Shown here piece by piece: positions 44,935 to 56,834 of a stretch of 64,000 bases of DNA (position 1 is the first letter of the stretch; every line of letters starts with the position of its first letter). Source of the stretch: a virus. Lineage: Duplodnaviria > Caudoviricetes. The position numbers and the translations under genes are program-made. Below the pieces are notes generated by a model, which saw only the letters and a program-made list of their open reading frames with translations, did not search any database and was not told where the DNA came from. The stretch lies in IMG/VR virus record IMGVR_UViG_3300032030_000005, positions 96,001 to 160,000 of that record. One strand, given 5' to 3'.

Positions 44935-45137
44935 TATATTATAATTATGGATTAAAGTATGCTATCCGGAGAATCAATGTAAATCTTTTCACCTCATCAT
45001 GCATTGATATAGATATTTTAATCTAAAAATCGAACAGAATAATAACCAAAAACACACTACTTTAAAAAGGAGATAATGGCTACGGACCATTCGAAAAAAT
45101 AATGTTTCTTCAAATAAGGCCATTATCTCTTTTTTTT
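44935..45137 (+). ncRNA. Candidate early small RNA (two long hairpins)
   Basis: TATATTAT at 44935-44942, no long ORF, hairpin at ~44949-45024 and a terminator hairpin at ~45064-45137. Confidence 0.5.
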
Positions 45138-45895
45138 TATGCTGCAGGAATATCTTCAGTATCTAATTTAACTTTCTCTAAGAAATCTACATCTCCCATA
45201 TCGAGATATACTTTCTTAATTCTAAGCTTATCTAAATCTAATTCAGTATCACCATCAAGAATTTCATTAGTCTTGTTATTAATTAAATTAAGCACTTCCT
45301 TATAATTACCATATTCTTTAGCATTATATTCATCTATAAAATCATGATAATTACCAAATACATATTTATTAGTTAATGGTATAAATAATTCACCAGCATG
45401 GTATAATTCATGAGGAGTTACTGATAAAGGAACTAAGCCAACTTTTCCTTCATAATGAAGTCTTAATACTTCCTTAGAAATAGAAAATGGATTTAAACAT
45501 CTATCAAACAGCTTTTGATTAGATGGATCTTCCATTTGATTCTTCATTCTATTTTGAATAACTATTGAAGTTATATCAAATATAGTAAAAGGATAATGAT
45601 GCATTTCAAATGAAATCTTACAATTATCAGATATGTCTATATTTTTAAAAAAAGCACATTTTGTTAAATCAAATTCAGTTTTTAAAATCTTTATATATTT
45701 TCTATATTCATAACTAGAACGAATCATCTTTACAATCTGTTTTGTATAATCCGAAAGAGATTTTTCATCTTCGAATATATCCATATATAATTCTCTAAAA
45801 TCTGTATAATTGTGAGCATCTACTGAAAGTACTATATGACCATCATCTTCTACTGTATTATTTTTTAAAGTTTCTGATAAATTTGGTACTAACAT
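45137..45895 (-). CDS. Hypothetical protein with an HNH-like His motif
   Basis: C.FF...EMHHYPF...LHY...GLVPLSVTPHELYH. Confidence 0.55.
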   Translation of the reverse strand: MLVPNLSETLKNNTVEDDGHIVLSVDAHNYTDFRELYMDIFEDEKSLSDYTKQIVKMIRSSYEYRKYIKILKTEFDLTKCAFFKNIDISDNCKISFEMHHYPFTIFDITSIVIQNRMKNQMEDPSNQKLFDRCLNPFSISKEVLRLHYEGKVGLVPLSVTPHELYHAGELFIPLTNKYVFGNYHDFIDEYNAKEYGNYKEVLNLINNKTNEILDGDTELDLDKLRIKKVYLDMGDVDFLEKVKLDTEDIPAA

Positions 45896-49948: not shown

Positions 49949-50180
49949 TATATTATAATTATGAAATATGAGACTTCTATATCCCAGTATAATTAACCAC
50001 AAGGAGGTGATTATAGTGGACTGGGATATAGAATGTGTAGAATAATAAGATAAAAGAATCTTATTACTTACTAAAAAAAAAAAGAAAGGAGGTGGATCGC
50101 CGATGGGCGTTTGTTATATTTTACACCGTAAGGTGATCGAGATCGTGTTATTATTAACCATCCCTTTCTTTTTTTTTTAT
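49949..50180 (+). ncRNA. Candidate early structured RNA with two SD-sequestering hairpins
   Basis: TATATTAT at 49949-49956; stems 49975-49988/50020-50033 and ~50083-50096/50158-50178. Confidence 0.45.
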
Positions 50181-50222
50181 TTTCTCCTAACTATATAGAA
50201 TAGTTAGGAGAAAAATTTATTT

Positions 50223-53087: not shown

Positions 53088-53993
53088 TCACCTACCTATT
53101 TTTTCAAGAATATTATTTTTATCTGGTACAGCGTATCTGTTTAATTCTATAAATTTATTAATATCAATAGGATCATCTTTACCTGCTAAAATATCATTTA
53201 ATTTATAATAATCTTCTTCATATTTAAATTTATACTTCTTTACAAACTGTGCATAATCATTATAAGAAATTAAATTAGAATAATCTCCTTCTAATCTTGA
53301 AACATAGTTTCTATAAAATTTTTTAATATCCTGATCTGTTAATTTATAAATAAGAACGCCAGCACCTACTAATGTAGCACCAGTTGCTATTGGACCATAT
53401 TTAGGGCCTAAAGCATCTTTAATACCATTAGCAACTATTAATGAACCACCAAGCATTAACCCTTTAGAAGCTATATCTGCAAAATCTTCATTATAAGTAG
53501 TATTTAAAGGATGTTCACATAAAGGCTTTCTAGGTTTTCTCCAATTAGAAATACAACCTTTATTTTCATTCGTACATTTAACACCCTTATCAATCTTTTT
53601 ACCATTCTGATCTAAGATGGTAAAGTTATAATCTTCAGGATTATCACTACCGATAGAATCTGTATCAGCTGTTGATTTTAATCCCATATGATTACGATAT
53701 ATAGCATCAAAATCTACATCGCTTCTGTGATTTTTATTTACATTATTGTTATTAGTAAATATCTTCTTATTATATGTGTTTCTAACATCATCATCGTCTT
53801 TTTTATTATTTATTACAGATGCCGTCATTTTGTTATTATAATTATTATTGCTATCATTATAATCAGATACTCTCTTATTCTGATAATTTGCATTTTGAGT
53901 ATTATTTGTTAAATGACCATGCTTAGAACCTAAGATGATTTGCTTATTTTCTATGCCTTCCGGGAAGTCATCATATATCTTCTTATCTGCCAT
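53088..53993 (-). CDS. Hypothetical late protein with a low-complexity N-terminus and two hydrophobic helices
   Basis: AACA-N6-TA at 54021-54032; N-rich N-half; GLMLGGSLIVANGI and IATGATLVGAGVLIY. Confidence 0.6.
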   Translation of the reverse strand: MADKKIYDDFPEGIENKQIILGSKHGHLTNNTQNANYQNKRVSDYNDSNNNYNNKMTASVINNKKDDDDVRNTYNKKIFTNNNNVNKNHRSDVDFDAIYRNHMGLKSTADTDSIGSDNPEDYNFTILDQNGKKIDKGVKCTNENKGCISNWRKPRKPLCEHPLNTTYNEDFADIASKGLMLGGSLIVANGIKDALGPKYGPIATGATLVGAGVLIYKLTDQDIKKFYRNYVSRLEGDYSNLISYNDYAQFVKKYKFKYEEDYYKLNDILAGKDDPIDINKFIELNRYAVPDKNNILEKIGR

Positions 53994-54057
53994 ATTTAAT
54001 CATTCCTTTCTTAAAAAATATAAATGTTTGTTGAAGGATAAGATTTTTTAATAAAAT

Positions 54058-54330
54058 GAAAAAAAAAATATCCACCCTGCAGTGTGGATATTTAAAAACT
54101 CTCACTCTGCAGCGTGAGAGTTTTTACTTCTTCGGGATCATATAAAGCTCCTTTTCTACTCTCATCGTGGATCCCTACTTCATACACTTTGAGAATAAGG
54201 TTTTTCTTTTTACCAGGATTCGATATTTTATCGAACACAGAAAAACTCTCTAAAGACCTGGACAGTGCTAACTATTGAAGAATAACACACGCACTGTCTA
54301 ATATGTATTATTCTTCACGATTATAATATA
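54058..54330 (-). ncRNA. Candidate highly structured early ncRNA (pseudoknot, tandem CUGCAG-loop hairpins)
   Basis: TATATTAT at 54323-54330, no long ORF, several complementary blocks, ends in a hairpin plus U tract. Confidence 0.55.
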
Positions 54331-54356
54331 TATTTAATATTATAGTTTATTACGGT

Positions 54357-54977
54357 TTATTTATCATCATCGAATAATAATAGTAAACTAATCTCAGCTG
54401 CAGTAGCTTCATCAGTATCTATTTGTAAAGTTCTTGTAAATTTATTATAAGATACTTTACTATATTGTTTAATGATATTAACATCACCAACGCTATCATA
54501 TAAAGATATTTCAAAATAATTTTTTGAATTTCTGGACCAAGACCAACTATCTATTGTTGGTATCAACTTATCATAATTAGTATTATTCACAAATATATGA
54601 TTAATTGGTACTGAACAAAAGCAACAACTTAATAACTCTTTTAAAGTTACATCTATATCTACATATATAATTACTGATGATAGGGATGTATTTTTACATC
54701 CCATTGCAATTATCTCATCAAAGAATGAATTATTTCTTCGATTAAGATAAGGTAATATTAATGTATTTTGAGATGTAGATGGTATAAACGTATCAAGATC
54801 TTCTTCTATTTCAATTTTTTGATTATATAGTAAAATTATATTTAAATTAGCTATTATTTTTGTAATAATATTACCTTTTAATATTAAATCTCTATAAGAA
54901 TTATTATTCCTTTTAATAATATTGTTAAGGCCTATTAACTCATTCACATTCTTTATCTCATAAGTATTATTATTCAT
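54357..54977 (-). CDS. Hypothetical protein
   Basis: 206 aa; C-terminus resembles that of ORF 55537. Confidence 0.6.
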   Translation of the reverse strand: MNNNTYEIKNVNELIGLNNIIKRNNNSYRDLILKGNIITKIIANLNIILLYNQKIEIEEDLDTFIPSTSQNTLILPYLNRRNNSFFDEIIAMGCKNTSLSSVIIYVDIDVTLKELLSCCFCSVPINHIFVNNTNYDKLIPTIDSWSWSRNSKNYFEISLYDSVGDVNIIKQYSKVSYNKFTRTLQIDTDEATAAEISLLLLFDDDK

Positions 54978-54985
54978 ATGATCAC

Positions 54986-55537
54986 CTATAAATTAGCTTG
55001 AAGTAATAATAAGGCTTCAAATTTTTTACTTTCATTTTCAATATACAATGTTTTATCTTGAATGCTATAAGATACCAAACTACCTCTTGGTATGCAAATA
55101 TCTTTAAATTTTGTATGAGATAAAAGACTATATACTGATACAAAAGTAGATGTAGTTTCATGGATAATAGAATTATTAACCATAAATTTTCTCACTATCC
55201 CTTCAGCCGGTAATACTCTAACTATATCTTTACATGTTACAGCATCCATGTTTATAGTAAAAATTATTTTATTAAAGCTTTTATTACAGCAACGTATTCT
55301 TCCTATAGTTTGTTTATACGCATTTATATTTGTACTAGTTACAATAATTGAGAACGGAGCATATAAATTTTCAACAACTTTATCCTTAATCTTGATTATA
55401 GTTTTTGAGTCATATTTTTTACTAGTTAAATACTTATACATAACATATAAGTCACTAACACCTTCTATTAAGAAGGTGTTATTTGGACTTACTTCTAGAT
55501 TATAGAAAGTGTGAAATTTAATTTCTACATCATCCAT
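54986..55537 (-). CDS. Hypothetical protein
   Basis: 183 aa, in an early operon. Confidence 0.6.
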   Translation of the reverse strand: MDDVEIKFHTFYNLEVSPNNTFLIEGVSDLYVMYKYLTSKKYDSKTIIKIKDKVVENLYAPFSIIVTSTNINAYKQTIGRIRCCNKSFNKIIFTINMDAVTCKDIVRVLPAEGIVRKFMVNNSIIHETTSTFVSVYSLLSHTKFKDICIPRGSLVSYSIQDKTLYIENESKKFEALLLLQANL

Positions 55538-55710
55538 GTTTCATTATTCTCCTTGTCTTCTTTTGTAAGATCTATTTTTTCCTCTTTAGGATAAAGATAA
55601 GATCTTACCTCTTCGACCATATTTGTAATGGTAACTGCAATATAGATAGTTCCTATTACTGCGACCAATAACAACGCGATAAAGATTGCATTAATAAATG
55701 ACTGGTTCAT
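55525..55710 (-). CDS. Small membrane protein
   Basis: Transmembrane segment AIFIALLLVAVIGTIYIAV. Confidence 0.65.
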   Translation of the reverse strand: MNQSFINAIFIALLLVAVIGTIYIAVTITNMVEEVRSYLYPKEEKIDLTKEDKENNETWMM

Positions 55711-55823
55711 TTCCTAGACTTCCTTTCATTAATATAAATTGTATATACTTTAATACCAATTAATATGGTAAATAAAATATTCAATAATAAAATGATTAAT
55801 CCAATTGTTTTTAATATAGCCAT
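55707..55823 (-). CDS. Small membrane peptide (38 aa)
   Basis: AAGGAG SD after TATATTAT (55837-55844); MAILKTIGLIILLLNILFTILIGIKVYTIYINERKSRK; ATGA overlap with the next gene. Confidence 0.6.
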   Translation of the reverse strand: MAILKTIGLIILLLNILFTILIGIKVYTIYINERKSRK

Positions 55824-55886: not shown

Positions 55887-56834
55887 TTATAAAATTTTAT
55901 TTTCTATTAAAATATTTTTTATTTCATCTTCAATATTTTTAAATTTAGTATAAGGAATTCTATACAATTTAATATTATTTTCTTTACAATATGTATCTTT
56001 AACAAAATCTCTTTTATTCTGAATCATATCTTTATTATATAAGCATTCATGGAAATGTTGTTTCCCATCACATTCAATTAGTAAAAAAGAATTATCATAG
56101 TTTATCTTAAAATCAAATCTTAATAATTTAATATATTTACAATCATTAAAAATAGCATTATGTATAAAATCAATATTCAAAGACTTTAAATATTCAATTA
56201 CTCTTAATTCACTGTTAGAGATTCGTTTACTGCACATTGAACATCTGTATCCTTGTTGAAAATTATTAAATTTTATTTCAAAAATATTGCCACAAGTTTC
56301 ATGTAATATTTTAAGTTTGTCTTTATTACCATTGTAAACATCAGATATTAATTTATAACCATTAACAGATTCAATCATATTTTTTATATCATTTATATCA
56401 TACTTTTTATTATTAGAATATTCTCGTAAATTATTTATTTTACAAGTAGGACAACTCTTTAAACTTTTTATATTACTTGGTTTAATATCCCAAGTAGTAT
56501 TACATTTTAAATGCTTAATTTTTAATGGTGACTTACTATTATAAGTATCAGATATTATTTTGTATTCATTTTTACCAAATGTATCATCTAAATATTTTTG
56601 ATATTTTTCAATACTACCAGTTCTAGCACTACAATATGTACATTTTTCATCTCTTAATAAACCATGAAAACTTTTTTCAAATATAGTATTGCATTTTAAA
56701 TGTTTAATTTTAATTTTACTATGAGAATTTAAATTTTCATATTCTTCATTTGTTGTTAATACCAAATATTCATTTGGATATTTAGCTTCTAATTGCTTTA
56801 TATAAAAATCTAATGATTTTTTCATTTTAATCAT
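55887..56834 (-). CDS. Free-standing homing endonuclease (zinc-ribbon repeats plus Vsr/DUF559-like nuclease)
   Basis: KHLKC...C..C repeats; LRFDF...LIECDGKQH...D.VKDTYC...LYRIPY. Confidence 0.8.
   Translation of the reverse strand: MIKMKKSLDFYIKQLEAKYPNEYLVLTTNEEYENLNSHSKIKIKHLKCNTIFEKSFHGLLRDEKCTYCSARTGSIEKYQKYLDDTFGKNEYKIISDTYNSKSPLKIKHLKCNTTWDIKPSNIKSLKSCPTCKINNLREYSNNKKYDINDIKNMIESVNGYKLISDVYNGNKDKLKILHETCGNIFEIKFNNFQQGYRCSMCSKRISNSELRVIEYLKSLNIDFIHNAIFNDCKYIKLLRFDFKINYDNSFLLIECDGKQHFHECLYNKDMIQNKRDFVKDTYCKENNIKLYRIPYTKFKNIEDEIKNILIENKIL

Follow-up and report, generated by a model that had tools for sequence, protein, structure and literature searches.

The locus studied here raises the question of what is made from an early promoter that is followed by two terminators and by no protein gene. 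It was analysed within a window of 64,000 nt, which corresponds to bases 96001-160000 of the 305,865-bp IMG/VR record (~25% GC) of an uncultured giant phage; positions below are those of the window unless they are marked as genome positions. The locus lies on the minus strand, in a 363-nt gap between a 206-aa ORF (54357-54977) and a 301-aa ORF (53088-53993), and neither of these flanking ORFs matched a family. The genes around it include a split RNA polymerase beta' piece, two HNH homing endonucleases, NrdD and a DnaB-type helicase. The beta' piece shared 46-48% identity with its counterparts in the Bacillus phages BpSp, Goe21, AR9 and PBS1, indicating that the phage is a distant member of the AR9-like group, whose members encode two multisubunit RNA polymerases. 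A sequence-only reading of the gap had proposed a structured early RNA of ~265 nt with a pseudoknot, twin self-complementary loops and a 5-codon minigene. Its coordinates and motif strings were all exact on checking, and the features are collected in Table 1.

Table 1. Features of the early unit, of the insert that carries it and of comparable loci in the genome (window positions unless marked as genome).
Feature	Position	Strand	Description
Upstream promoter box	54346..54358	minus	AAACCGTAATAAA, core CCGTAATAAA at 54355-54346; overlaps the stop codon of the 206-aa ORF
Early promoter core	54323..54335	minus	AAATATATATTAT; 13/13 match to the AR9 early consensus
Hairpin H1	54277..54316	minus	5'-terminal, 14 bp (arms 54316-54303 / 54290-54277), 12-nt loop AUUAGACAGUGC
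Candidate pseudoknot stem 2	54261..54268	minus	GCACUGUC, perfect complement of loop bases 54298-54291
CCAGG/CCUGG helix	54213..54261	minus	Closes two small hairpins, one a perfect 7-bp UUCGAUA/UAUCGAA (54235-54219)
SD and 5-codon ORF	54124..54155	minus	SD AAAAGGAG (54155-54148), 6-nt spacer, ATG ATC CCG AAG AAG TAA (54141-54124, MIPKK)
Terminator T1	54094..54125	minus	A5, CUCUCAC, loop GCUGCAGA, GUGAGAG, U5; pairing probability ~1.0, -15.4 kcal/mol
Terminator T2	54059..54093	minus	AAAUAUCCAC, loop ACUGCAGG, GUGGAUAUUU, U run; also found by terminator scan
Late promoter AACA-N6-TA	54021..54032	minus	For the 301-aa gene (53088-53993); late start A54021; outside the RNA
Insert absent from L003	54000-56880		~2.9 kb; HNH endonuclease, four small orphan ORFs, RNA unit
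HNH endonuclease in insert	55887-56834		
Hydrophobic micro-ORF in insert	55707-55823		38 aa
Hydrophobic micro-ORF in insert	55525-55710		61 aa
Further ORF-less early units	window 44949-45140 (+), 49963-50210 (+); genome 53055 (-), 52717 (-), 44757 (-), 56086 (-), 239735 (+)	as marked	
Early 5'-leader motif sites	window 19730 (-); genome 68869, 228021, 239735, 286248, 298094 (+); also 229665	as marked	

In AR9, differential RNA-seq and primer extension gave the early-promoter consensus AAATATATATTAT-(6N)-G+1, and nine mapped early promoters carry CCGTAT(T/C)AAA 10 nt 5' of the AT-rich core (PMC5312081, Table S2); those of g048, g069, g108, g120 and g234 are the ones to compare for this upstream box. 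The locus has the identical core, and its CCGTAATAAA box stands at the same 10-nt spacing. Six bases, AATCGT (54322-54317), separate the core from G54316, the predicted +1, with which the 14-bp hairpin H1 also begins. The sequence-only reading had called the RNA early, a label that agrees with our finding: judged by its match to mapped AR9 promoters, TATATTAT is part of a predicted early (virion RNA polymerase) promoter of perfect AR9 type. Genome-wide, the core is present 64 times when one mismatch is allowed; most copies have a strong SD and start codon 16-120 nt downstream, and the upstream box was found at ~14 early promoters.

At the other end of the unit stand two hairpins in tandem. T1 has a 7-bp core stem (12 bp with the A/U-tract pairs) and U5, is bidirectional in form and is among 75 terminator-like hairpins of the genome. 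T2 has 8-10 bp and U10, and it occupies the position of the single terminator of the closest relative, L003 (IMGVR_UViG_3300028591_000390). Both are stable, GC-containing hairpins with an immediate U tract, the form of intrinsic terminators, and jointly they folded at -25.8 kcal/mol (z -6.56). RNA-seq of AR9 revealed strong termination at predicted terminators at operon ends. With a start at G54316, the two strong terminators predict an RNA of ~223 nt if it ends at T1 and of ~255 nt if it ends at T2. No terminator lies between the 206-aa ORF and the early promoter; T1 and T2 would therefore also end the upstream early operon, which consists of orphan ORFs of 38, 61, 183 and 206 aa, and would shield the late-promoter gene downstream.

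The late promoter of that gene follows directly after T2, 27 nt 5' of the 301-aa start codon, and matches the AR9 late consensus AACA-(6N)-TA/G. Together with its leader it is kept in L003 and ahead of another gene in this genome. As a module (window 54001-54032, genome ~55700 (-)), it consists of AACA-N6-TA and then TATTTTTTAAnAGAAAGGAATGA, near-identical at both loci and similar in L003.

We searched the transcript for coding potential. The SD and the MIPKK minigene singled out by the sequence-only reading were confirmed as the sole ORF of at least four codons with an SD on the transcript, and MIPKK is one of 23 SD-led ATG ORFs of ≤15 codons genome-wide. As for the surroundings of the unit, in L003 NrdD and one terminator are followed directly by the 301-aa gene, which indicates that the ~2.9 kb found here are an insertion specific to this phage's lineage. 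The 206-aa neighbour protein is an orphan, with zero relatives among 5.8 billion proteins; atlas searches with the 183-aa and 206-aa proteins gave low-confidence models only and nothing usable on function.

Building on what is directly established, namely the promoter match, the strength of the hairpin and of the terminators, the absence of a coding gene and the genomic layout, we give about an even chance to the explanation that the locus is an orphan, lineage-specific early small-RNA unit without a protein gene, which doubles as a terminator/insulator before the late gene. We infer that the unit is transcribed and that its RNA is stable and acts as a small RNA, as a riboregulator or a minigene carrier, and is not inert. 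In the mechanism that we propose, the injected virion RNA polymerase would initiate at G54316 from the two-box early promoter and would halt at the tandem intrinsic terminators, giving an RNA of one or the other predicted length. Because of its +1 hairpin and its 3' terminator hairpins, the RNA should resist 5'- and 3'-end-dependent decay and should build up early. Ribosomes would enter solely at the exposed AAAAGGAG-N6-AUG of the 5-codon ORF, whose stop codon is at the foot of T1.

We then considered how the RNA is folded. The whole region gave a folding z of -4.85. H1 alone reached -13.7 kcal/mol (z -4.58), with 0 of 300 shuffles as good and pairing probabilities of 0.85-0.99, whereas the 157 nt between H1 and T1 (54276-54120) had a z of -0.61, and 77 of 300 shuffles folded equally well. 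The folding signal thus comes nearly all from H1 and the terminators, so that the 'structured ~265-nt RNA' of the sequence-only reading, which holds for the two ends but not for the interior, is really a 5' hairpin plus two terminators. Within the interior, the CCAGG/CCUGG pairing was predicted with good probability (0.87-0.89 and 0.77-1.0 in the domain), but the sub-domain had a z of only -1.8. A GGGAUC/GAUCCC stem, also drawn in that reading, was given up: its pairing probability was 0.07, and it competes with the minimum-energy helix.

Hairpins of at least -12 kcal/mol in strength began at +1 to +3 at 4 of 55 early start sites, compared with 0.5% of random positions. This enrichment indicates that H1 is a recurrent feature of this phage's early transcripts. 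In Bacillus, 5' stabilisers are found in the ermC and aprE leaders, the STAB-SD of cryIIIA and the SP82 polypurine element. They have a strong +1 hairpin and an SD without a real gene, as at this locus, and by analogy with what is known of Bacillus mRNA decay H1 may act as a 5' stabiliser. In contrast to the Bacillus SD stabilisers, the SD here is near the 3' end of the RNA and thus cannot protect the RNA body.

The unit has counterparts in the same genome. At least six further early units have a consensus early promoter, then 150-400 nt and a terminator, without an SD-led ORF of more than ~31 codons. When seven ORF-less early units were compared, T-tracts were the sole common sequence, and Rfam gave no match for the other ORF-less early units. 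In the unit at genome 53055, a 13-bp hairpin that starts 2 nt past the predicted start is followed by C-rich and CCUCC (anti-SD-like) single-stranded motifs.

A unit of the same layout is present in AR9, where a mapped early start at 181724 is followed by ~260 nt with an SD and a tiny ORF, a terminator, AACA-N6-TA and the virion gene g214. This ~260-nt stretch had a folding z of -4.47, its 15-codon ORF is unannotated, and the g214 leader stretch is identical in PBS1, Goe21 and Internexus. It has no sequence similarity to the locus studied here, and it has one terminator whereas there are two here. The AR9 authors described the stretch before g214 as a 340-nt 5' UTR, not as a small RNA (PMC5312081); it may instead be a separate early small RNA. 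In KU878088.1 (181724-182000), the SD-led 15-codon ORF reads MFKALRTVLSIIGLQ, and a hairpin and U tract stand before the AACA-N6-TA late promoter.

Small RNAs have also been reported for other giant phages. In 201phi2-1, 11 small RNAs of <250 nt were each delimited by a start site with a termination site shortly after it (PMC11512511). The small RNAs of 201phi2-1 and phiKZ are likewise short (<~250 nt), noncoding, intergenic or 5' of a gene, and made by early termination (PMC11512511), and the RNA of 223 or 255 nt predicted here falls within the same size class (<~250-260 nt, without coding sequence). They differ in that they were detected by cap-selected long-read RNA-seq and that one is conserved across genera, whereas the present RNA is predicted from sequence, is without relatives and belongs to a Firmicute-type AR9-like phage. 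By analogy, the recurrence of ORF-less early units, with at least six others in this genome, the AR9 analogue and the 201phi2-1 precedent, would support the small-RNA reading. Transcriptomes have revealed small RNAs of giant phages only lately, and no function is known for any of them. At least seven gene-less early-promoter units appear to be present in this phage, and one of the same layout occurs in AR9, a phage that grows in laboratory culture; provided that the RNAs are real and have a function, AR9-like phages would lend themselves well to the study of early RNAs made by a virion polymerase. This locus alone is an unconserved prediction.

Several searches for relatives bear on that point. 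The RNA family had not been recognised in the sequence-only reading, and Rfam 15 gave the same outcome for the window: nothing reached the gathering threshold, the best sub-threshold match had 23.6 bits against a threshold of 55, and nothing was credible to E 10. A blastn search against GenBank phages gave no match to the unit. Exact and gapped pattern scans of IMG/VR (H1 loop/3' arm, pseudoknot inverted repeat, twin apex) yielded chance matches only; of two scans of JGI metagenomes, one with a 31-mer found nothing and one with the twin apex found only satellites. When 291 translation-start regions of the phage were screened as antisense targets, the strongest duplex had -37.6 kcal/mol, within the shuffled null of -33.7 +/- 2.6 kcal/mol (minimum -39.9). 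Against the small-RNA reading stand the lack of a homologue in the databases searched, the orphan status of the 206-aa neighbour, the interior folded at chance level and the lack of a significant antisense target among the phage translation-start regions.

The main rival is that the locus is the scar of a lost early gene, in which promoter, leader, SD, ATG and terminators were left after the body of a small orphan gene had been deleted, and that the RNA is inert. We consider this possible but rather unlikely. The unit sits inside the insertion missing from L003, the ORFs of this insertion are without family matches, and the interior of the unit folds at chance level. Five codons is roughly the ORF length to be expected after an ATG in random sequence of 25% GC, and the gene may have left a trace in a 59-codon frame free of stops, whose codon score is intermediate. 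PeSL-mediated indels are documented in T4-like phages (PMC2839356, PMC4122927). Here, too, a repeated early-promoter module and stem-loops border lineage-specific orphan genes at an indel; a PeSL, however, is a terminator and then a promoter in one compact repeat, whereas here the terminators are ~200 nt downstream of the promoter. Because copies of the promoter module, upstream box included, are scattered over the genome, two of them could recombine and a gene be lost, in the manner of T4 PeSL cassettes. Both the promoter (13/13 plus box) and the two terminators are flawless, which speaks against a scar, but a perfect promoter and terminators would also persist for a while around a recently deleted gene. 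The distance from the start to the MIPKK SD is 175 nt, beyond the usual 16-120 nt, also a point against the scar. Furthermore, the same layout in several other ORF-less units and in the AR9 g214 unit argues against a one-off accident.

The model of the sequence-only reading was a folded ncRNA with a 5' H-type pseudoknot and with twin CUGCAG loops that kiss in cis or dimerise two molecules. As a whole this model is doubtful, and its parts fared differently. The loop complementarity was borne out: GACAGUGC (54298-54291) and GCACUGUC (54268-54261) form 8 of 8 Watson-Crick pairs at -13.6 kcal/mol, a duplex rich in G and C for a genome of 25% GC. By the k-mer frequencies of the genome, chance would supply an 8-nt complement of the H1 loop 0.006 times per 100 nt, and ~3% of generic hairpins in the genome have some 8-nt loop complement within 100 nt; because it was picked after the fact, the match is moderately unlikely, not extreme. 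Part of the geometry would fit the classical form: stem 2 would directly adjoin the 3' arm of stem 1, and a loop 1 of 4 nt would be acceptable over the 8-bp stem. The 8-nt linker (54276-54269), on the other hand, would have to reach across the 14-bp stem, which appears sterically borderline if H1 does not fray at its base. Viewed as simple hairpins, H1 (-15.4 kcal/mol) and GACAGUGC/GCACUGUC (-12.5 kcal/mol) are alternatives of comparable stability. In five related jumbo-phage records, neither blastn nor a covariance model of the 5' domain found anything; in its own genome, the sole match of the model was the locus itself.

The CUGCAG hairpin loops are real as well: among 59 CTGCAG sites genome-wide, these two alone are in hairpins. 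T1 and T2 have in common the apex CAC-R-CUGCAG-R-GUG; its 14-nt sequence CACNCTGCAGNGTG occurs in two copies 30 bp apart and at no other place in the 306 kb. Purines flank each hexamer, which lies in an 8-nt loop, a form 1.3 kcal/mol better than the extended one, and a CUGCAG/CUGCAG duplex had an energy of -10.2 kcal/mol. HIV-1 DIS-type kissing-loop hairpins have a purine-flanked 6-nt palindrome in an 8-9-nt loop. The twin loops have the same form, but here the palindrome is the centre of a terminator and is not conserved. T1 and T2, bidirectional in form, are near-perfect palindromes, so that a palindromic loop centre is automatic. The only other tandem terminator pair (genome 250058 and 250106, +) also has a common stem sequence, TTAAGGAT/ATCCTTAA. 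This suggests that tandem terminators arise through local duplication, which is the simplest reading of the twin apex. In IMG/VR and JGI metagenomes, the twin-apex pattern was met only as chance matches in GC-rich DNA and as satellites. With the interior at chance level and the palindromic loops explained by terminators with a shared apex, the specially structured ncRNA with kissing loops or dimers was not supported.

Translation of the 5-codon ORF might itself be the function, acting through peptidyl-tRNA(Lys) release, as in lambda bar, or through ribosome loading that modulates T1 or the stability of the RNA; we regard this as improbable. The bar minigenes of lambda are 2-codon ORFs ending in AUA. 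Like them, MIPKK is early-transcribed (by prediction), strongly SD-led and too short for a protein, but it has five codons and ends Lys-Lys. From the background SD rate, a strong SD and ATG would arise by chance with a probability of roughly 0.01. In each of three early units, an SD-led ORF 5-10 codons long finishes with Lys-Lys(-Lys)-TAA next to a terminator (MIPKK, MATDHSKK and MENINISKKK), the MIPKK stop codon is 3 nt from the T1 core stem, and the phage encodes a tRNA-Lys(UUU). The Lys codons, however, are largely the A-tracts of bidirectional terminators, the three geometries differ, and in the MATDHSKK unit a 12-bp stem sequesters the SD and AUG. In addition, T2 would still terminate transcription after read-through of T1, and no peptidyl-tRNA hydrolase gene was found in the phage. 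It is quite improbable that the RNA folds as drawn, with a 5' pseudoknot and kissing twin loops, or else belongs to a set of early Lys-ending minigene RNAs of AR9-like phages. Either, if true, would establish a new kind of early RNA effector in jumbo phages; the proposed minigene set, made from virion-polymerase promoters, would disturb host translation or RNA decay within the first minutes after infection.

Very improbable is a small protein gene, either the 48-aa GTG ORF at 54238-54095 or a longer ancestral frame: the 59-codon stop-free frame is mildly unusual at 25% GC and the codon score is near the median of the genome's small SD-led ORFs, but the ORF starts with GTG, has no SD in a genome whose genes have strong SDs, would cross the entire T1 hairpin and had no tblastn match, and its codon score, between those of spurious frames and real genes, favours a spurious frame by ~2:1 under a fair null, with coding odds of ~0.4:1. 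An element acting at the DNA level, in which the CACNCTGCAGNGTG palindromes, centred ~58 and ~88 bp 5' of the late start, bind a dimeric protein or mark a recombination joint, has a similarly slim chance: the two sites are indeed just 5' of the late promoter, but each lies in a full-length hairpin that pairs also in its lower stem, although the two lower stems differ, and that runs into a U tract, as a terminator should, there is no known candidate binding protein, and the motif is not conserved elsewhere (IMG/VR, JGI metagenomes).

Two known RNA types were also weighed and rejected. A 6S-like RNA does not agree with the fold, which is without a rod-like closing stem. A group I intron was considered since homing endonucleases are nearby; nothing in Rfam pointed to one, and the ORFs on either side come with a stop, a promoter and an RBS of their own. 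Kinship of the RNA to a conserved early-leader hairpin motif was rejected too, as UAGACAG, which the RNA has in common with two leaders, was too weak to claim.

Outside the window, the genome has a cluster of eight tRNA genes (genome 193209-196230) for Lys-UUU, Tyr, Asp, Met, Glu, Asn, Leu-UAA and Gln. The early 5'-leader motif consists of GAAACAU, a 5-bp hairpin with an 8-nt loop (stem ..[G/C]AC/GU[C/G]..) and UAAAUAAACUGUU, and lies ~10 nt 5' of the SD. One copy stands between cistrons, without a promoter, and the motif may be the unexplained early-UTR motif mentioned for AR9.
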